From: a virus
Lineage: Duplodnaviria > Heunggongvirae > Uroviricota > Caudoviricetes
DNA: 36,857 nucleotides
Reading direction: 5' to 3' (one strand)
Virus record (IMG/VR): IMGVR_UViG_2690316068_000008
Location: 1-36,857 of that record
In this document: piece by piece, positions 1 to 36,570 of the stretch
How the letters are laid out: each line of letters opens with the position of its first letter
How positions within the stretch are numbered: position 1 is the first letter of the stretch
The notes under the pieces: model-generated
What the model was told of the DNA's origin: nothing
Database searches by the model: none
What the model saw: the letters and a program-made list of their open reading frames with translations, nothing else
Made by a program: the position numbers and the translations under genes

Positions 1-1053
1 TTACGGGGTAATGCCAACCGCTGCCGCCACTTTGTCGCCACTTGGCAGCGTTGCCAGAGGGTTGAAACGGAGCGCCGTTTCCAGATGATCCGGTGCCAGA
101 TGTGCGTAACGCATAGTCATTTTTATATCGTGGTGTCCGAGAATTTTTTGTAAGGCTAGAATGTTTCCACCCGACATCATGAAGTGCGCCGCAAACGTAT
201 GGCGCAGAACGTGTGTGAGTTGACCGCGAGGGAGCACGATAGACGTTTTTTCCATCACGGATAAAAATTGAAAATAGCAGTCTGTAAAGAAATTGAACCC
301 ATCAAGCGCCATGATCTCTTCGTAAAGCTCTTTACTTATAGGGATGCTTCTGTTTTTCTTCCCCTTCGTTCTGACAAAGGTAATTCGGTATTTGGTCACC
401 TGTGAGCGGGTAAGATTTACGGCTTCACGCCAGCGTGCGCCTGTGCTTAAGCATATCTTAACTACCAGTGCCAGAATTGGGTCCTGACGTTTGCAATCAG
501 CCAGCAATTCAACAATCTGCTCATGGGTAAGCCATGCCATCTCTTTTTCTGCGATGGTGAATTTTCGCATGTTCTCCAGTGGGTTCGGATACGACCATTC
601 GCCCAGACGGGATAGTTCGCTAAAAACACTACTTAGATAGCTTTGCTCCAGGTTAATGGTGACCGGGCTTGCTCCTTTCTTCCATTTCTCGCTGAAGTAG
701 ATCTCGCCTGTCAGGCGTTTATCTCGATAGTGGGCAAACATTTTAGAGGTGAGATCGGTTGCAAGAGGATTGCCCAGAGCGTCAACCATCAACAGCAATT
801 TGTCATAGACATGCTGCCCAGCTGTCAGAGATTTACCATGTAGTTTGAACCATAGCTCAACCACGTCTTTCAGTGTTCGACGATCCACTGATTCACCCAG
901 CCAGGGCTTTGCTTCGGTTTCTTCCATCGTGTGGCGCTCAAAAGCCAGAGCTTCGCCTTTGGTGGCGAATTGTTTACGCACCCGACGCCCACTACGTCCG
1001 GCGGGGTAACATTCGCAAAGCCATTTTCCTGTGGTGAGTTTTCGTACTGCCAT
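1..1053 (-). CDS. int: Tyrosine integrase (P2-family site-specific recombinase)
   Basis: 350-aa ORF with ATG at 1053 and stop at the window edge. C-terminal region HVLRHTFAAHFMMSGGNILALQKILGHHDIKMTMRYAHL fits the tyrosine-recombinase R..H..R..Y catalytic pattern. Position at the prophage end. Confidence 0.9.
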   Translation of the reverse strand: MAVRKLTTGKWLCECYPAGRSGRRVRKQFATKGEALAFERHTMEETEAKPWLGESVDRRTLKDVVELWFKLHGKSLTAGQHVYDKLLLMVDALGNPLATDLTSKMFAHYRDKRLTGEIYFSEKWKKGASPVTINLEQSYLSSVFSELSRLGEWSYPNPLENMRKFTIAEKEMAWLTHEQIVELLADCKRQDPILALVVKICLSTGARWREAVNLTRSQVTKYRITFVRTKGKKNRSIPISKELYEEIMALDGFNFFTDCYFQFLSVMEKTSIVLPRGQLTHVLRHTFAAHFMMSGGNILALQKILGHHDIKMTMRYAHLAPDHLETALRFNPLATLPSGDKVAAAVGITP

Positions 1054-1058
1054 AATAA

Positions 1059-1078
1059 AGCCCTCATATCAGAGGGCT
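1059..1078 (-). terminator. Stem-loop (AGCCCTC-atatca-GAGGGCT) between KAP NTPase gene and int start; possible terminator or translational control element
   Basis: Perfect 7-bp inverted repeat with a 6-nt loop, seen directly in sequence, a few nt upstream of the int start codon on the minus strand. Confidence 0.3.
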
Positions 1079-1139
1079 AAATTTAACTGTATGTTTGACC
1101 AGTGGTCAATGTATGGTTTAGTTTATTCAAACAATGCTT

Positions 1140-2657
1140 TTAATCAAATGATGTGGCCAGTTCAATTAATTCAATGTAATTATGTAAGGCATAAAAAGAT
1201 GTATTCAGTCCATTCTCTATAAGGGCTCCTTGCAAATACTTTATAGCTGTATCACCATCAATAGGGCCTTGTTGAGATTTAATCATTAGTGAATTTTGCC
1301 CATTGTTTTTTATACTTGATTTAAGTATGTTTATATTATTGATAAAATACAATGCAACATCTAAGTAATTTATTAATGTTAAATTTATTTTGGGCTCGAT
1401 CTGTGAGATGAATAATCTACTGCTCGCCGTTGTATAGATATAATTGACACCTATTCTTTGCTGATTTGTATCAAGATTTAATTCAAGGATGGCTTGAGAA
1501 ACACCTTTTAAATTGGAGCTTTGCTTTATCGAATCAGTGAAACGTTGTGCTGCATTTCTTCGACCAATTAGTCCATCTATAATTTGACGATCCTTATCAT
1601 ATATAATCATTAGCGAAATTATAAAAATATAATCTACTTTCTTTTTGACTAAATCAGATTTAAGAATGTCTATTAACCTTTCAGTATTTCGGATTGAGTC
1701 TCTTAGATTTAACCCAAATGCTTCAAATACGTTGGAAATATTTATTGAAAAGTCTTCTAATGTTGCGGTTAGTGGGTATGTTTTTGATGTGATATTTTCA
1801 AACTCGGTACCAATATAATCACCAACAACACCATTAATTAAATCTTTAAGTTCAGGTTGTTTTAAAGTAAATCTTCTATGAAAAAAACGGCCTAAATAGT
1901 CATTTGCGGAAAAATCATTACCGTAAACATTCTTGATTGAATGTTGTAATTGATCTGTGTCAGTAGCAATAATAAAGACAAAATTTTTAATGTCGAATAT
2001 ATGTTTAACAATCTCTAAAAGAGAAATTGCATAATCTGGCCTGCATCTGTCTAATTCATCTATAAAGATAAATATAGGACATGAAAAACTATTTTCATAT
2101 GCCAACCTAGACCATAACGTAAGTTCTTTTTTTAATACCTTAATGCTCTTCAGTTTTTCCTGGTGTTCCTTCAGCATTATTAATGAGGCTTCTTTGGCTA
2201 TATCACCTACGTTATCTACTCCTGCATAAGTCTTGATTAGGCCAGATATGATTTCAGGTAGAACACCTTTTGTAAAGCGTCCGATAGCATGGCCGCTTTG
2301 TATCAATCGAGCATCAAGTTTTCCTGCATATGTTTGCAATTGTTGTGACAAAGAAGAAAAAAGGGTTAAAAATGCATCATCAGAAAAGTCTTGCTTCCAG
2401 GCATCAATGTAAACGCATGGGTGTGCATCTTTTATTGAGTTATAAAATCTCTTTATGAAAAAACTTTTACCAGCTCCCCATTCTGCATTAAGGTTGATTA
2501 CCGTGTTGTTCTTTTGCCCCTTTTCCTTAAGATAAAAATATAGATATTCTGCATAGTGTCTCCGATTAAGTTTGTCTTTGGAAAGAATTTCCTCTTCGTC
2601 GTCTAATATAAAGGTAGTTTCTTCATCCCAGTTCCAATTACAATCACCACATTTCAC
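1140..2657 (-). CDS. KAP-family P-loop NTPase (cargo/moron, putative defence-associated)
   Basis: 505-aa ORF with Walker A-like AEWGAGKS and Walker B-like IFIFIDELDRCRPDY, typical of KAP NTPases. Apparent GTG start at 2657 with GGAGA upstream. AT-rich compared with the phage backbone. Confidence 0.65.
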   Translation of the reverse strand: MKCGDCNWNWDEETTFILDDEEEILSKDKLNRRHYAEYLYFYLKEKGQKNNTVINLNAEWGAGKSFFIKRFYNSIKDAHPCVYIDAWKQDFSDDAFLTLFSSLSQQLQTYAGKLDARLIQSGHAIGRFTKGVLPEIISGLIKTYAGVDNVGDIAKEASLIMLKEHQEKLKSIKVLKKELTLWSRLAYENSFSCPIFIFIDELDRCRPDYAISLLEIVKHIFDIKNFVFIIATDTDQLQHSIKNVYGNDFSANDYLGRFFHRRFTLKQPELKDLINGVVGDYIGTEFENITSKTYPLTATLEDFSINISNVFEAFGLNLRDSIRNTERLIDILKSDLVKKKVDYIFIISLMIIYDKDRQIIDGLIGRRNAAQRFTDSIKQSSNLKGVSQAILELNLDTNQQRIGVNYIYTTASSRLFISQIEPKINLTLINYLDVALYFINNINILKSSIKNNGQNSLMIKSQQGPIDGDTAIKYLQGALIENGLNTSFYALHNYIELIELATSFD

Positions 2658-2682
2658 TATGAAGTCTCCATGAAAAATTTAC

Positions 2683-3606
2683 TTAATGTAAACAACTTAT
2701 AATAACTTTTGCAATAAACTCAATGTCTGTAAGCGAACATTCAAAAGAGTGATTTTTGGATGAAATATAAACTCGTCCTTTAGGTAGTCGAGTTATCATT
2801 CTAAATGAATTCTCTCCATCAATATTTACTAGCCACTTACCATCATGTACATCTTTAAAACCCATTTCACATATTAATTCAGAGTCTTCGGTAGATACTA
2901 CGAATGCATTTTTTAAATTGGAAGGTAGAAAACATGGGTCAAATAAATATGAGCCATCATTTATTAACTTGCCATTGATTAATACTTTTTTCACTAATGT
3001 TAAAGTATCTTTATTTTTTGCGTTTTTCATTTCTCCTGTACCAAATGAAATCCATTCAATAGAATGGCCCGTTTCTATTGCACACTGCAAAACCCAGTCT
3101 GCAGGAAAAATGTCACGCATGTATCGTGTGGCTAATGTGCTTTTTGAAATACCTAGGTGATCAGCTAATGCTTGGCGCGTTTTGTAACCGTAAGCCTCGA
3201 CAATTCGTTCTATTGTTGCCTTACCCCCTCGGTTAAAATTCATGAGTTTTTCATTATCGAACTTTATAGTGGGAATGTATACTTCATTGCAAAGGCCATT
3301 AACGGCATGTTTTTCAGAATATTGCTCTGATGAAGGAGCAGTATCTGAACCAAGAACTAACCATTCAATTGATGCTCCTGTTTCTATGGAACATATAACA
3401 ACCCAATCTGCAGGAAAGGTATTACGTGCATATCTGTTGGCCATAGTACTTTGGGAAATACCTAGATGATTACATAATGCCTGTCGTGACTTGAAGCCAT
3501 AGGCTAGGAGTATACGCTCAATAACTTTTTGCCCTCCACGATTCTGCATAACTATTGCTTTCAGATCGTTTTTGATATGGCTAAATTTTAATTTTTGAGT
3601 TGACAT
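2683..3606 (-). CDS. CI-repressor paralog with two tandem N-terminal HTH domains and a CI-like C-terminal domain
   Basis: 307-aa ORF. Residues about 25-85 and 128-188 are near-duplicates (ERILLAYGFKSRQALCNHLGISQSTMANRY...ETGASIEWL versus ERIVEAYGYKTRQALADHLGISKSTLATRY...ETGHSIEWI). The C-terminal domain is paralogous to the C-terminus of the adjacent 191-aa repressor. Confidence 0.6.
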   Translation of the reverse strand: MSTQKLKFSHIKNDLKAIVMQNRGGQKVIERILLAYGFKSRQALCNHLGISQSTMANRYARNTFPADWVVICSIETGASIEWLVLGSDTAPSSEQYSEKHAVNGLCNEVYIPTIKFDNEKLMNFNRGGKATIERIVEAYGYKTRQALADHLGISKSTLATRYMRDIFPADWVLQCAIETGHSIEWISFGTGEMKNAKNKDTLTLVKKVLINGKLINDGSYLFDPCFLPSNLKNAFVVSTEDSELICEMGFKDVHDGKWLVNIDGENSFRMITRLPKGRVYISSKNHSFECSLTDIEFIAKVIISCLH

Positions 3607-3656
3607 ATTTTTTACACCACAACAAATGCTTTACCAAGCATAAAAACATTCCTATG

Positions 3657-4232
3657 TTACTCAAAGTACTTAACTGTTATGGTTATAATTTTTCCAATAA
3701 TTTCGATTTCTTCTTTTTTACATTCGAAAGCCCTATTTCCACCTTCAACTAAGATTCTTCCACCAGGTAAACGAGTGATATCGCGGATTGTTACTTCGGC
3801 ATCAATACTTATTACCCATTTACCGTCACGAATATCGTTAAACTCTTTATCGCAAATAAAAACGGAATTGTTATCGGTGATTACAAACGGATTTTTGAGC
3901 GTAGATGGTAGAAATTCTTTATCGAAAATATAAAAACCATCTTCCTGCAAGGTTCCATCAGATAATACATATTTAACGACTTCCATAGTATTTGTATTAC
4001 CTGAAGTTTGCTTTGAACCATGTCCGGTCGTGAGCCAGTTAAGCGAGGCGCCCGTTTCAAGTGCGCACTGGATTACCCATTCAGCAGGGAATGAGTCACG
4101 CATATAGCGTGTGGCGAGAGTACTTTTAGAGATTCCTAAGTGATCGCACAACGCCTGTCGAGTCTTGAAGCCATATGCTTCTACCATGCGCTCTATAGCG
4201 CCTCGTCCGCCTTTCTCCAAATTCATGGTCAC
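3657..4232 (-). CDS. cI: Immunity repressor, 186 CI-type (HTH N-domain plus oligomerisation C-domain)
   Basis: 191-aa ORF adjacent to the divergent early operon. N-terminal ERMVEAYGFKTRQALCDHLGISKSTLATRYMRD HTH-like segment. Length close to the 186 CI as I recall it. Start may be GTG at 4232 or ATG at 4226. Confidence 0.6.
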   Translation of the reverse strand: MTMNLEKGGRGAIERMVEAYGFKTRQALCDHLGISKSTLATRYMRDSFPAEWVIQCALETGASLNWLTTGHGSKQTSGNTNTMEVVKYVLSDGTLQEDGFYIFDKEFLPSTLKNPFVITDNNSVFICDKEFNDIRDGKWVISIDAEVTIRDITRLPGGRILVEGGNRAFECKKEEIEIIGKIITITVKYFE

Positions 4233-4250
4233 TCCAAGTGAACTTTTGTC

Positions 4251-4279
4251 TTGACGATTTCATTATGCGATCGTATGTT
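4251..4279 (+). promoter_or_regulatory. Candidate early lytic promoter (pR/Pe-like): TTGACG, 17-nt spacer, TATGTT
   Basis: Sequence reading only: -35-like TTGACG at 4251-4256 and -10-like TATGTT at 4274-4279 in the cI/apl divergent intergenic region. Confidence 0.35.
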
Positions 4280-4351
4280 TATGATGTTCACAAAATACAA
4301 ACGATCCGTATTCGTCCTGATTAATCAACATTAAACGAGGAATGTTGCATC

Positions 4352-4573
4352 ATGAAACATAACATTTCAATCACTCTTACCACGCCTCATGTGACTATTG
4401 AACGTTATAGCGAGCTGACAGGGCTATCCATCGATACTATCAATGACATGTTGGCTGACGGACGCCTTATCCGTCACCGTTTGCGCAAAGATAAAAAACG
4501 CGAAAAAGTGATGATCAACATAGCAGCCATGACCGTTGATGCGCTTTCAGAATGCAATCTAAACCTTAATTAG
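4352..4573 (+). CDS. Apl/Cox-like excisionase and transcriptional regulator (small HTH protein)
   Basis: 73-aa ORF, first gene of the rightward early operon opposite cI. HTH-like segment [24 protein letters not shown]. Confidence 0.45.
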
Positions 4574-4605
4574 TTCGATTCTGAAATACATCAGAGGCAT
4601 TGACC

Positions 4606-5115
4606 ATGTTTGATTACCAAGTTTCCAAACATCCACATTTTGATGAAGCCTGTCGTGCATTTGCACTGCGCCACAATCTGGTGCAACTGGCAGAACGTGC
4701 AGGCATGAATGTGCAGATTCTGCGGAACAAGCTGAACCCAGCTCAGCCTCATCTATTAACCGCACCAGAAATCTGGCTGCTTACCGATCTGACTGAAGAT
4801 TCAACGCTGGTAGATGGTTTTCTGGCACAGATTCATTGTCTGCCATGTGTACCGATTAATGAGGTGGCAAAAGAGAAACTGCCACATTACGTCATGAGTG
4901 CAACCGCAGAGATCGGGCGTGTTGCTGCAGGTGCGGTATCTGGCGATGTAAAAACCAGTGCAGGTCGTCGTGATGCTATCAGCAGCATTAACTCTGTAAC
5001 ACGACTGATGGCGTTGGCTGCTGTTTCATTGCAGGCCCGTTTACAGGCTAACCCTGCGATGGCGAGTGCAGTTGATACCGTGACCGGCCTCGGTGCTTCA
5101 TTCGGTTTGCTGTGA
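4606..5115 (+). CDS. cII: Phage regulatory protein CII-like (186 CII family)
   Basis: ATG at 4606 preceded by a GAGG-containing RBS. Position immediately after the Apl-like gene and a length similar to 186 CII as I recall it. The family call is from memory of the sequence pattern. Confidence 0.5.
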
Positions 5116-5122
5116 GGTGCTT

Positions 5123-5419
5123 ATGCTGACGAAAGAACCATCATTTGCATCGCTGCTGGTAAAGCAAAGCCCGGCAATGCACTACGGTCACGGCTGGATC
5201 ATGGGTGAGGATGGAAAACGCTGGCATCCATGTCATTCACAAGATGAATTGCTGTCTGAATTGACCACGAGGAAACGGAGAAAGTCAAAATGTATGCAGC
5301 GGAAAGTGAAGTGGTTTATCAGTTTTGTTACAGAGGGGAGAGTTATTCAGTACCTGAAGATGATTTGCTCTGTTGTTATCCGTCGTTGTCGGGCGATGGC
5401 AGTTACTTTTTCACGCTAA
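5123..5419 (+). CDS. Hypothetical early protein (N-terminal part plausible; 3' portion overlaps the next ORF in another frame)
   Basis: ORF beginning MLTKEPSFASLLVKQSPAMHYGHGW. The C-terminal part overlaps 5290..5514 and looks low-complexity, so the gene model is uncertain. Confidence 0.3.
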   Translation: MLTKEPSFASLLVKQSPAMHYGHGWIMGEDGKRWHPCHSQDELLSELTTRKRRKSKCMQRKVKWFISFVTEGRVIQYLKMICSVVIRRCRAMAVTFSR

Positions 5420-5514
5420 AGGATGGGACGTTTTTACGGGGAGAGCAGGTTAAAGAGACGGTACGAAAAAATGTATCTCCCCTTGAGCGTTACCGTAAGA
5501 ACAAAGAACGATAG
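5290..5514 (+). CDS. Hypothetical early protein
   Basis: 74-aa ORF with protein-like composition (MYAAESEVVYQFCYRGESYSVPEDD...), in the early operon. Confidence 0.35.
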   Translation: MYAAESEVVYQFCYRGESYSVPEDDLLCCYPSLSGDGSYFFTLKDGTFLRGEQVKETVRKNVSPLERYRKNKER

Positions 5515-5536
5515 GTGTGTTTGGGGGATATGAAGT

Positions 5537-5878
5537 ATGGCAATTAATGGCGCTGCGGCGACTGTTCCATTAAGCCCCGGAGAACGCCTGAATGGACTTA
5601 ATCACATTGCGGAATTAAGGGCGAAAGTATTTGGCCTGAATATTGAGTCAGAGCTTGAGCGGTTTATTAAAGATATGCGTGATCCACGGGATATCAATAA
5701 TGAACAAAATAAACGGGCACTAGCTGCCATATTCTTTATGGCAAAAATTCCAGCTGAACGTCATAGCATCAGCATTAATGAGCTGACCACTGACGAAAAG
5801 CGGGAGCTGATTAAAGCAATGAATCATTTTCGTGCAGTGGTGAGCTTATTTCCCAGACGGCTAACCATGCCGAATTAA
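5537..5878 (+). CDS. Hypothetical early-operon protein
   Basis: 113-aa ORF with a purine-rich stretch just upstream of the ATG, co-oriented in the early operon. Confidence 0.5.
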   Translation: MAINGAAATVPLSPGERLNGLNHIAELRAKVFGLNIESELERFIKDMRDPRDINNEQNKRALAAIFFMAKIPAERHSISINELTTDEKRELIKAMNHFRAVVSLFPRRLTMPN

Positions 5879-5945
5879 CCAACTAATGAAATTAATGGCG
5901 TAAACCCGCCGGGCATCCCTTTATCTAAATTCAGGAGAATTGATT

Positions 5946-6179
5946 ATGCGTAATATTGAAAACCTCACGACTAAAACCGGACCGGATGACGCAGGGCTTA
6001 ATATTTTACTGACAGAGGCTCGTCTGGAAGAACGCAGGGCAAGGGCTGAAGCAATGGCAGCTCGCCTTGATCGCCTGGCGTGTCATATCACATCCCGCCA
6101 GTTAAACCACGTCGAAGCGGCAGAACTGCTGCGTGTGACTGCTGAAGCAATCCAGAACGAAGCGCAGGAGATCCACTGA
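5946..6179 (+). CDS. Hypothetical early-operon protein
   Basis: ATG at 5946 preceded by CAGGAGAA. 77 aa, coiled-coil-like (EARLEERRARAEAMAARLDRL). Confidence 0.45.
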   Translation: MRNIENLTTKTGPDDAGLNILLTEARLEERRARAEAMAARLDRLACHITSRQLNHVEAAELLRVTAEAIQNEAQEIH

Positions 6180-33692: not shown

Positions 33693-33782
33693 TTCTTCGC
33701 AATGGAGAACTTTTAAGTTTGCAAAATGGAATAATGCGGTATCATTATTGTGAATTTAGCAAAAATGGGGAGAACTCGAAAA

Positions 33783-34001
33783 ATGATGATTTGCCCACTG
33801 TGTGGAAGTGCCGCCCATACTCGCAGCAGTTTTCAGGTATCTTCATTGACCAAAGAGCGTTACAACCAGTGCCAGAACATTAACTGCAGCCATACTTTTG
33901 TTACCCATGAAACTTTTGTTCGTTCGATTGCAACGCCAAAAGAGTCAAATCCGGTTCAGCCGCATCCAATGAAATCAGGACAGGTGGCGCTCTCTCTTTG
34001 A
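33783..34001 (+). CDS. ogr: Late gene activator Ogr/Delta zinc-finger protein
   Basis: ATG at 33783 gives MMICPLCGSAAHTRSS...YNQCQNINCSHTF, with the CxxC...CxxxxC arrangement. Length 72 aa. Confidence 0.8.
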   Translation: MMICPLCGSAAHTRSSFQVSSLTKERYNQCQNINCSHTFVTHETFVRSIATPKESNPVQPHPMKSGQVALSL

Positions 34002-34237: not shown

Positions 34238-35923
34238 TTATCCTAATCCTGGCCATACCATGACGATGATTGTCCCTGCCAGCGTCAGCAGGACGTTGGC
34301 GATTGCATAGGTGCCCGCATAGCCCAGCGCCGGGATGTTACTGCGAGCTGTATCACTGATGATCTCCATTGCCGGCGCGCAGGTGCGTGCGCCCATCATT
34401 GCGCCGAACAACAGTGCGCGGTTCATTCGCAATACATAAGCACCGAACAAGAAACAGATAACCACTGGCACAAGACTGACAATCAATCCGGCAATCAACA
34501 TCTGACCGCCAATCGCGCCCAGGCCGTTATTAATACCGCTACCGGCGCTCAGACCAACGCCTGCCATAAACACCATTAAGCCGAACTCTTTCACCATGCT
34601 TAATGCACCCTGCGGAATGTAACCGAAGGTCGGGTGGTTAGCGCGCATAAAGCCCAGCATAATTCCGGCGAATAACAACCCGGCAGCGTTCCCCATGCCG
34701 AAACTGAATGTGCTGAACTGGAAGGTGATCATCCCGATCATCAGCCCAATAACAAAGAAGGCGCAGAATGCCAGCAAGTCAGTGACCTGGCTGTGAATCG
34801 AGATAAAGCCGATGCGATCGGCGATGGTTTTTACGCGACGGGCATCGCCGCTGACTTGTAAAACGTCACCTTTGTTAAGCACGACGTTGTCATCTATCGG
34901 CATCTCAATCTGGCTACGAATGACGCGGTTAAGGAAGCAACCGTGATCGGTCAACTTCAGTTGTGCGAGACGTTTGCCCACGGCGTTATGGTTTTTAACG
35001 ACCACTTCTTCAGTGACGATACGCATGTCGAGAAGGTCACGATCGAAAACTTCTTTGCCGTTACGGAAGCTGGGATCGAGTCGTGCGTGGGCGTCGGGAT
35101 AGCCTACCAACGCTATTTCATCTCCCATTTGTAGCACAGCATCACCGTCTGGATTCGCCAGAATCCCGTTACGTCGAATACGTTCAATGTAGCAGCCAGT
35201 TTGTCGATAAATACCCAGTTCACGCAGATTTTTGCCGTCGGTCCAGGCCACCAGCTCCGGGCCGACGCGGTAGGCGCGGATCACCGGTAAATAAACCTTA
35301 CGGTTGGCATCAGTGTCCAGGCCACGTTCGCGGGCGATTTGCTGGGCGCTGGTCTGTAAGTCCTGATGCTGCAATTTCGGCAAGTAACGCGCACCAACAA
35401 TCAAACTCACCAGACCGATTAAATAGGTTAAGGCATACCCGAGGCTCAGATTATCCAGTGCCAGTGAGAGCTGCCTGCTTTCCATGCCGGAATGACGCAG
35501 TGTATCGCCAGCACCGACCAGAACCGGTGTCGACGTCATAGAGCCAGCTAACATACCGGCCGTCAGGCCAATATCCCAGCCAAACAGCTTACCTAACCCT
35601 AAGGCGATCACCAGCGCACTGCCAACCATCACCAGTGCTAACATTAGGTAATTTTTCCCATCGCGAAAAAAAATGGAAAAAAAGTTCGGTCCGGCTTCGA
35701 CCCCGACGCAGAAAATAAACAGCATAAAGCCAAGATTAAGCGCGTCGGTGTTAATGCTGAAATGTTGTTGGCCTAATAACAGCGATACGACTAAAACGCC
35801 AATGGAATTACCCAGTTGGATCGAACCAAGTCGTAATTTCCCGAGACATAGCCCAAGCGCGAGGACCACAAATAATAACAGAATGTAATTCCCATTTAAC
35901 AATTCGGCGACGTTTATATTCAC
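34238..35923 (-). CDS. ybjL: Putative transport protein YbjL (AAE-family membrane transporter with central TrkA-C/RCK-like region)
   Basis: 561-aa polytopic membrane protein whose N-terminus [39 protein letters not shown] matches E. coli YbjL as recalled. Confidence 0.8.
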
Positions 35924-36192
35924 GGAGGCTAACTTCTTGTTTACTAGTAAGCTGTTGAAAGAAATGGTAATTTACGATAATGTTTTTTACCAGAATTCAG
36001 GGCGCAGATTCATTCAGCGCACCTAAACGATAGTAAAGTAACAATATATTTTACTAGTGTAATCACATTAGGTATCAACGGCTATATGAATTGCGTTGGC
36101 CTATATTAGCATGGAATGCGAAGCGGCTTTATCTTACTGAACGCCACACTGGCGAAAAATGTGTTCGATAGACGCAGTGTCAGGAGGAACGA

Positions 36193-36570
36193 GTGAAACA
36201 TAAACAACGTTGGGCGGGGGCAATCTGCTGTTTTGTCCTCTTCATTGTGGTGTGTCTTTTTCTGGCGACGCACATGAAAGGCGCTTTTCGGGCTGCCGGG
36301 CATCCTGAAATCGGTTTGCTATTTTTCATTCTTCCTGGTGCAGTTGCCAGCTTCTTTTCACATCGTAGAGAAGTCCTGAAACCTCTGTTTGGCGCAATGC
36401 TGGCGGCACCCTGTTCGATGCTCATTATGCGGCTGTTTTTTTCACCGACGCGCTCATTCTGGCAAGAGCTGGCATGGTTATTAAGTGCGGTGTTCTGGTG
36501 TGCGCTGGGGGCATTGTGTTTCTTATTTATCAGTAGTTTGTTTAAACCACAGCACAGAAAAAATCAATAA
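36193..36570 (+). CDS. ybjM: Inner membrane protein YbjM
   Basis: 125-aa hydrophobic protein between ybjL and grxA, the conserved E. coli neighbourhood. Confidence 0.7.
   Translation: MKHKQRWAGAICCFVLFIVVCLFLATHMKGAFRAAGHPEIGLLFFILPGAVASFFSHRREVLKPLFGAMLAAPCSMLIMRLFFSPTRSFWQELAWLLSAVFWCALGALCFLFISSLFKPQHRKNQ

Follow-up and report, generated by a model that had tools for sequence, protein, structure and literature searches.

The CI switch of coliphage 186 is a textbook model of cooperative repression, and its operators are inverted repeats. CI repressors of the 186 type bind operators at pR, shut down lytic transcription and form higher-order wheels. Here we describe a member of the same repressor family that is carried, in addition to a resident CI, by a complete P2/186-like prophage of Escherichia coli. 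The DNA analyzed is a stretch of 36,857 nucleotides (positions 1 to 36,857 of IMG/VR record IMGVR_UViG_2690316068_000008; referred to below as the window), and the gene in question, on its minus strand at 2683..3606, encodes a 307-aa CI with two N-terminal helix-turn-helix (HTH) heads, which we designate tCI. Its architecture, its family context, the origin of its parts, the junctions that bound it and the loss of its operators are established below. At the left end of the prophage, the minus strand carries int (1..1053), a KAP NTPase gene (1140..2657), tCI and the canonical CI gene (3657..4232); to the right of the switch (4233..4351), the plus strand carries an apl-like gene (4352..4573) followed by cII (4600..5115).

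Like 186 CI, tCI combines the PF07022 head with the PF16452 C-terminal domain, and belongs to a prophage with apl, cII, fil and int. It differs in having two heads instead of one and in not being switch-proximal in the window, the two proteins are only ~28% identical, and the operators of tCI relatives appear, from conservation, to be fixed-register direct repeats around pR. Closer counterparts are the CIs of Klebsiella phage 4LV2017 (YP_009789826.1), Kapieceevirus phages and E. coli ECE218 (WP_024195659.1), which share the architecture, backbone and integrase, and are 51-62% identical to tCI overall and 82-91% in the first head. Each of these is the sole CI of its phage and overlaps its own pR, with the -35 hexamer in codons 1-3 and repeats at -33, -13 and +16, whereas in the window another CI precedes tCI and none of the three operator positions is left. 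A third counterpart is found in Klebsiella peduovirus prophages (loci L149 and L150), in which a CI, KAP and int block is colinear with window 1..3201; their CI is 72% identical to tCI residues 121-307, but is a single-headed, switch-proximal repressor.

The interval between cI and int is a known defense hotspot in P2-related and K139-like phages (Rousset et al. 2022, PMC9122126; also PMC13586616). The window resembles these loci in its anti-phage cargo between the repressor gene and int, placed for expression from the lysogenic operon, the cargo here being the KAP NTPase, a match to the PADLOC candidate PDC-S20. A search of PMC9122126 and PMC13586616 for the word 'repressor' turned up no repressor gene among the hotspot cargo. 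Functional analogies from unrelated families are offered by the P2 C repressor, which reads asymmetric or direct-repeat operators (PMC2995052), and by a two-domain mycobacteriophage immunity repressor with two DNA-binding modules per chain (PMC9283540). We found no description in the literature of two-headed 186-type CIs, of their chimeric switches or of a repressor as hotspot cargo; two-headed CIs form a diverse family that databases label merely as 'phage repressor protein CI' and that is apparently unstudied.

Domain organization of tCI

An earlier note on this DNA had described two consecutive HTH-type copies in the protein, followed by a C-terminal domain paralogous to that of the neighboring CI, and this architecture was borne out. 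Pfam assigns two stretches of PF07022 (Phage_CI_repr, E = 3.8e-56) and one of PF16452 (Phage_CI_C, E = 1.7e-25) to tCI. The two heads align significantly with each other over residues 22-87 and 125-190, with 43/66 positions identical (65%, E = 5e-33), and the positions first proposed for them (~3350..3535 and ~3040..3225) were right to within a few bases. Residues 122-290 match residues 3-171 of the neighboring 191-aa CI with 57% identity (E = 2e-74), including the DGSYLFDPCFLPSNLKNAFVV / DGFYIFDKEFLPSTLKNPFVI stretch quoted in the note. The parallel translations of the opposite-strand open reading frames (ORFs) 2918..3160 and 3242..3469 were likewise confirmed, with peptide ends ...HSIEWPVSIAHCKTQSAGKMSRMYRVANVLFEIPR and ...HSIDAPVSMEHITTQSAGKVLRAYLLAIVLWEIPR, and are a trivial by-product of the head repeat. 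The parts of the gene are as follows, with types A and B denoting the two head lineages described in the next section.

2683..3606 including the stop codon, minus strand: two-headed CI gene (tCI), 307 aa, intact, ATG start (ORF list, Pfam; PGAP 'phage repressor protein CI', WP_060588798.1)
3544..3606, minus strand: N-terminal extension, aa 1-21 (MSTQKLKFSHIKNDLKAIVMQ), specific to type-A CIs (alignments; helix at residues 13-21 in the model)
3343..3543, minus strand: first N-terminal domain (NTD1), aa 22-88, type-A HTH head with recognition helix QSTMANRYAR at residues 52-61 (alignment, Pfam, tree, model)
3235..3342, minus strand: inter-head linker, aa 89-124, predicted to be disordered (predicted local distance difference test, pLDDT, <50 at residues 92-121)
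3034..3234, minus strand: second N-terminal domain (NTD2), aa 125-191, type-B HTH head with recognition helix KSTLATRYMR at residues 155-164 (alignment, tree, identities)
2686..3003, minus strand: 186-type CI C-terminal (oligomerization) domain, aa 202-307 (PF16452; structural match to PDB 2FKD)

An AlphaFold2 model built with 31 homologues shows three confidently folded domains and a disordered linker at residues 92-121, with a mean pLDDT of 81.5; its low predicted template modeling score (pTM, 0.40) is due to the free arrangement of the domains. The modeled C-terminal domain superposes on that of 186 CI (PDB 2FKD) with a TM score of 0.92 and a root-mean-square deviation of 1.2 Å, and a sequence search with tCI matches full-length 186 CI (PDB 2FJR, E = 1e-22). 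In Pfam, tCI has no match to Peptidase_S24, the self-cleaving domain of LexA and lambda CI; the neighboring CI has only a sub-threshold match (17.1 bits versus a cut-off of 23.3), and the likeness of the tCI C-terminal domain to LexA C-terminal domains is structurally distant. PADLOC and NCBIfam returned no match for tCI itself.

tCI thus has both the N-terminal Phage_CI_repr HTH, in two copies, and the C-terminal fold of 186-type CI repressors. An alignment with 30 relatives, the head tree and the identities further place it in a type-A tandem CI subfamily, defined by the succession of extension, type-A head, linker, type-B head and C-terminal domain. The switch-proximal position that its homologues occupy elsewhere is not shared by tCI, which is the second gene, 50 bp after the resident CI.

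In the linker region, Met122 aligns to the start codon of ordinary CIs, in a column that is not kept as Met in other tandem CIs. A promoter-like TATACA-17-GATAAT lies inside the linker-coding DNA (3253..3281, minus strand) and ends 9 nt before the Met122 codon (3241..3243); promoter-like matches around this region occur at chance frequency. If active, the site could give a short isoform resembling an ordinary CI, with NTD2 and the C-terminal domain. No support emerged for the idea that the linker DNA was once the switch or 5' untranslated region of the downstream CI and is now translated: the only matches were of 9-11 nt (e.g. AAAGTTCAC), with E >=0.02 in a tiny search space, which is not significant.

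Origin of the two heads

A neighbor-joining tree was built from 116 heads, located with a small hidden Markov model made from the three heads of the window. In this tree, clade A holds the first heads of tandem CIs together with the single heads of ~207-aa CIs that have the same extension (MST..IT.RH...), and clade B holds the second heads of tandem CIs together with ordinary CIs such as that of the window. As group means, NTD1 is 74% identical to single type-A heads and NTD2 72% identical to single type-B heads, while NTD1 and NTD2 are 59% identical to each other. For the window protein, NTD1 is 78-80% identical to single type-A heads and 65% identical to its own NTD2. The description 'internally duplicated' in the earlier note is misleading in this respect; by these comparisons, tCI is a fusion of two old repressor lineages, each of whose head types also occurs alone.

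The note had further proposed a covalently dimerized DNA-binding module. The two recognition helices differ, that of NTD2 being the same as in the resident CI, and the heads are separated by ~30 disordered residues, so tCI is not a covalent homodimer.

The downstream part of the fusion has a counterpart. Window 1..3201, which covers int, KAP, the C-terminal domain and NTD2, is colinear with a Klebsiella prophage at 78% DNA identity; there, an ordinary 186-aa CI at the switch is followed by the KAP NTPase and int, with 72% (CI) and 80% (KAP) amino acid identity to the window. A separate observation concerns the locus L077 (IMG/VR UViG_3300029656_000144, 5001..5948), where the NTD2 and C-terminal domain of a sole two-headed CI are 85% identical to the CI of the window, which indicates that more than one type-B CI has been fused to the same type-A head, or that C-terminal parts recombine freely.

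A family of two-headed CIs

Although tCI had been treated as unique to the window, it belongs to a broad family whose members are normally the sole immunity repressor of their phage. A protein search returned ~45 clusters of two-headed CIs of 290-330 aa from E. coli, Salmonella, Klebsiella, Enterobacter, Citrobacter, Kosakonia and Edwardsiella. The window type forms one cluster (99% identity, 98 member sequences), with the next relatives at 60-62% identity. In Klebsiella phage 4LV2017, Kapieceevirus phages, E. coli ECE218 and a Salmonella prophage, the sole CI is of the two-headed kind; apl and cII adjoin it, and on its other side come a variable cargo and then int. Scanning IMG/VR with an NTD1-only alignment yielded 80 loci, 4 of them of the window type, and at ~50 IMG/VR loci the two-headed CI is the sole CI, lies exactly 88 bp from apl and is accompanied by an integrase 99-100% identical to that of the window. 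A profile search of genome contigs with the full tandem alignment retrieved mostly single-headed CIs (tandem in 2/59 loci). Three more tandem lineages with a different first head are likewise sole, switch-proximal CIs, and clustering at 50% gave at least 10 further clusters, at 26-36% identity, with two PF07022 domains. Among the 155 loci fetched, two adjacent CI ORFs were found in the window type only. The type-A switch and NTD1 are carried by 224/5426 complete E. coli genomes (~4%).

Among more distant proteins, one relative with two PF07022 heads (P0254) adds a Peptidase_S24 (LexA-like) domain, and two others, P0196 (327 aa) and P0257 (358 aa), show three matched stretches in a phmmer search.

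The cI-int cargo of two-headed-CI relatives (loci L073-L126, L067 and L151) is highly variable, and includes a P2 Old homologue (8.7e-234), PDC-M11A, GmrSD_N with HEPN, AAA_15 with DUF4276, an OLD/AriA-like ATPase and several ORFs without matches.

Native switch of the type-A repressors

The DNA around the CI start was compared across 52 non-redundant type-A loci, 31 with tandem and 21 with single-headed CIs, and is highly conserved. There, the CI start ATGTCAA is the reverse complement of the pR -35 hexamer TTGACAT, and the -10 element TATTCT sits in GGAGAATAGG. A direct repeat, TCACAWWWCG, recurs in fixed register from the CI ATG. The copy at -33 is present in 31/31 tandem loci. That at -13 occurs in 7/31 tandem and 20/21 single loci, and that at +16, which falls within codons 6-9, in 19/31 tandem loci and 13/21 single ones. 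That the N-terminal extension is conserved is probably due, in part, to the promoter and operator DNA that encodes it.

The tandem switch is itself chimeric. Its CI-proximal part, with the pR core and the TCACAWWWCG repeats, resembles that of single type-A phages (95% identity over 21 nt, E = 9e-7), and its apl-proximal part resembles that of type-B phages (86% over 29 nt, E = 3e-4). The pairing of a chimeric switch with a chimeric repressor suggests that each head may read its own half.

At the window tCI, this arrangement has been dismantled. The start/-35 sequence ATGTCAA is kept (3600..3606; TTGACA on the plus strand, 3600..3605), and no matching -10 remains. Homology to sole-repressor tandem CIs ends at 3614, leaving 8 nt of native DNA upstream of the ATG, so that neither the pR -10 element nor the repeats at -33 and -13 survive; the two repeat positions are now occupied by BL21-type sequence. 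The third repeat is present in decayed form:

3581..3590, minus strand: decayed '+16' operator repeat, reading TAAAATTTAG, with 3 mismatches to TCACAWWWCG

The decay changes the peptide ITFRH to LKFSH, with T7K and R9S falling at positions that are >=90% conserved. A search for operators likewise failed to find the native motif of the tCI type: no exact TCACAWWWCG occurs anywhere in the window, and the 13 one-mismatch copies in it are no more than chance predicts (17 expected), none of them lying in the intergenic regions that the earlier note had singled out.

A tCI-KAP cassette in the cI-int hotspot

The junctions of the inserted DNA were located by comparison with BL21-type prophages (~500 genomes), in which CI is followed by a 63-aa cargo ORF and int, and which are homologous to the window only at 47..1115 and 3616..4942. 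The features of this region are listed below.

1116..3615, minus strand: 2.5-kb cassette of tCI and the KAP NTPase, inserted in the cI-int cargo hotspot (homology breakpoints versus BL21-type prophages)
3612..3641, minus strand: remnant ORF MLGKAFVVV*, nine codons with the start codon at 3639..3641, the truncated 5' end of the BL21-type 63-aa cargo ORF (alignment; breakpoints 3615/3616)
1140..2657, minus strand: KAP-family P-loop NTPase, 505 aa, starting 25 bp after the tCI stop (Pfam PF07693, 1.5e-45; PADLOC PDC-S20, 6.7e-78)
1..1053, minus strand: integrase, 99-100% identical to the integrase of tandem-CI phages
3657..4232, minus strand: resident canonical CI (CI191), 191 aa from the GTG at 4232, or 189 aa from the ATG at 4226 in PGAP (ORF list, Pfam, PGAP)
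4233..4351, no strand assigned: resident lysis-lysogeny switch (consensus matches only)
4251..4279, plus strand: pR-like TTGACG-17-TATGTT (consensus match only)
4290..4262, minus strand: pL-like TGAACA-17-CATAAT (consensus match only)

The remnant ORF, whose stop codon is separated from the tCI ATG by 5 nt, is preceded by an AGGAA Shine-Dalgarno-like sequence and possibly serves as a translational coupling device for tCI. On the minus strand, neither a terminator-like nor a promoter-like site was found in the gap from cI to tCI or in that from tCI to KAP. The KAP NTPase is a candidate single-gene defense (PDC-S20). The cI-tCI-KAP arrangement occurs in 17/5426 E. coli genomes, where tCI and KAP are always together. 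The resident switch contains the only two GTTCAC hexamers of the first 8 kb, at 4238..4243 and 4286..4291, flanking the pR-like site. The prophage itself, to which strain Sx181-0-1 is 100% identical over 1000..4700, is integrated at a site adjoining rcdA, and its integrase implies that the tandem-CI phages use the same attachment site.

The same block of CI, two-headed CI, KAP and int is present in the enteropathogenic prototype strain E2348/69 (L156, NZ_CP059840.2, 3306045..3310270). Between it and the window, CI, tCI and KAP are 99.1-99.8% identical, int 97.8% and cII 91.8%, and the contrast between block and cII indicates that the immunity and cargo module moves between prophage backbones. 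tCI is intact in seven sequenced variants, namely the window, five other fetched sequences and E2348/69. Over six variants, its variable codons comprise 3 synonymous and 4 non-synonymous changes (1:1 versus E2348/69), too few for dN/dS on the cassette to be informative as a test of selection.

Relaxed constraint was examined through the nine positions at which the window tCI deviates from conserved residues. Six are conservative changes in NTD2, of which I172V, I173L and L177I are also found in the Klebsiella CI lineage; the N62 variant occurs in natural type-A CIs, and the HTH residues are kept. These deviations give no evidence of protein decay.

Possible roles of tCI

Of the roles proposed in the earlier note, that of a second immunity determinant fits best. 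Our favored reading, which we hold tentatively and at a little less than an even chance, is that tCI is a heterotypic determinant of immunity against type-A peduoviruses, acting in trans and co-transcribed from pL. Here we infer expression, DNA binding and an immunity phenotype from sequence. tCI has been separated from its native switch and, with the KAP candidate, has taken the place of the small cargo ORF that lay between resident cI and int. In the lysogen, it would be transcribed by read-through from pL, since it has neither a promoter-like site nor an operator motif of its own, in the order cI, tCI, KAP and possibly int, as other cargo of this locus is; its translation may be helped by coupling to the nine-codon remnant ORF. 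The product would be a functional two-headed repressor, none of whose native operator motifs lies in its own prophage. Its targets would be incoming peduoviruses of the type-A or two-headed-CI kind, whose conserved operators it would bind and whose pR it would repress, and which share the integrase and attachment site of the resident prophage. Such potential targets are common, as shown by the 224/5426 complete E. coli genomes with the type-A switch and NTD1, and the locus of tCI is one that in relatives holds defense cargo such as Old or GmrSD with HEPN.

Several points weigh against this reading. No phage was found whose resident repressor is >90% identical to tCI, the next relatives being at 60-62%, so the cognate target is assumed from the conserved NTD1 (82-91% identical, with the same recognition helix). 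The operator motif TCACAWWWCG was derived from conservation alone, and some of the switch repeats could be Apl sites instead; in 186, Apl binds direct repeats (PMC7498355). At 99.1-99.8% identity to E2348/69, and with the codon changes given above, the block is young, so the intact state of tCI is no proof of selection. Furthermore, a single operator specificity would make all type-A phages homoimmune, which is hard to square with the great diversity of their C-terminal domains.

Chief among the rivals is a recent, neutral relic of recombination, in which tCI was dragged in with KAP when the CI and cargo block of a two-headed-CI phage replaced CI191-type cargo, has no selected role and is intact only for being recent. 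We regard this as possible, if rather unlikely. It would account for the precise illegitimate junctions with 8 nt of native upstream DNA, the decayed intragenic operator copy, a block diversity of <=1% with too few codon changes (3:4) to show purifying selection, and an arrangement that is rare (17/5426 genomes) and unique among the 155 loci. It is less easily reconciled with a tCI that is intact in every copy examined, including the cluster of 98 member sequences, with the spread of the block to backbones 8% different in cII, and with HTH and C-terminal residues that carry no excess of damaging changes; moreover, a repressor that is expressed and folded would act on its cognate operators regardless of selection. 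A broader evolutionary account, to which we give a similarly limited probability, places the locus in a process of stacking. P2/186-like immunity regions would evolve by recombining a new pR core and head in front of an existing CI, giving two CIs in a row as in the window, and in-frame fusion would then produce dual-specificity two-headed CIs with chimeric switches. The window would represent a state with three heads in one operon, and the displaced tCI would be an anti-competitor gene that makes the lysogen immune to type-A peduoviruses.

It is improbable that tCI modulates the resident switch, by binding the prophage's own operators or mixing with CI so as to tighten or retune repression or stabilize lysogeny. 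The HTH segment of NTD2, TRQALADHLGISKSTLATRYMRD, is one residue off that of CI191, with the same recognition helix, and both proteins have 186-type C-terminal domains and would come from one transcript. However, KSTLATRYMR is nearly universal in type-B CIs, including those of phages with quite different switches, so the helix by itself does not define immunity specificity; tCI and CI191 are only 57% identical over NTD2 and the C-terminal domain, with the C-terminal part more divergent, which makes mixed wheels doubtful; and ~500 genomes have the same CI and switch without tCI, which the resident switch therefore does not need. We consider it very improbable that tCI is the regulator or sensor partner of the KAP NTPase in a two-gene defense, in which the NTPase is under the control of a CI-like protein or is set off by it, for instance when the latter senses the anti-repressor of an invading phage. 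The two genes are 25 bp apart in a defense hotspot and always occur together in the 17 E. coli genomes, and KAP matches PDC-S20, but PDC-S20 is a single-gene candidate, close KAP homologues (80% and 69% amino acid identity) are found behind a single-headed CI of the ordinary kind, which serves its phage as resident repressor, and at ~50 other two-headed-CI loci the cargo is other than KAP. Regulation of the adjacent NTPase gene, suggested in the earlier note, is unsupported, with neither an operator-like motif nor a promoter-like site in 2658..2682, the 25-bp gap, or in 1054..1139, and with the CI-KAP order also present where the CI is an ordinary one. Anti-repressors against 186-type and P2-type repressors are known, namely 186 Tum and P4 epsilon. 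That tCI is a decoy soaking up such proteins from satellites or rival phages, and so protecting the resident CI, is entirely speculative and highly unlikely: an operon with three CI-type heads, one nearly identical to the resident CI in its HTH, would suit such a function, but no observation here indicates an anti-repressor, and the short stretch that follows ogr at the end of the prophage showed no Tum-like ORF, a search that did not extend to the small ORFs elsewhere.

Other features of the prophage

A GC-rich stem-loop, AGCCCTC-TGATAT-GAGGGCT (1059..1078, minus strand), lies immediately ahead of the int start codon in DNA common to related prophages, and might act as a terminator or control the translation of int. 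The classic gpA-Q hotspot of P2 (10633..12284, plus strand) holds a two-gene candidate defense system, whose genes match PADLOC PDC-M03A (2e-122, with a weak HipA_C kinase match) and PDC-M03B (3e-93, with a HIRAN domain). The prophage is closed by an Ogr/Delta-type zinc-finger ORF (33750..34001, plus strand), beyond which lie host genes (34238..36570) for a permease with Asp-Al_Ex/TrkA_C domains (34238..35923) and ybjM.

Implications

Taken together, the data suggest that 186-type repressors include a natural, widespread class whose members have two different DNA-binding heads and chimeric switches, and in which the first codons of the repressor gene hold some of the promoter and operator elements. 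If this is true, module fusion would be a route to new immunity specificities, of interest to the fields of the 186/P2 switch and of prophage competition. The window represents a rarer state, with a complete repressor as cargo in a defense hotspot beside a KAP NTPase. As a mere relic, it would be an ordinary by-product of phage mosaicism. If heterotypic immunity is true, repressor genes would belong among the anti-phage cargo of prophages, and surveys that ignore 'regulators' would miss them.

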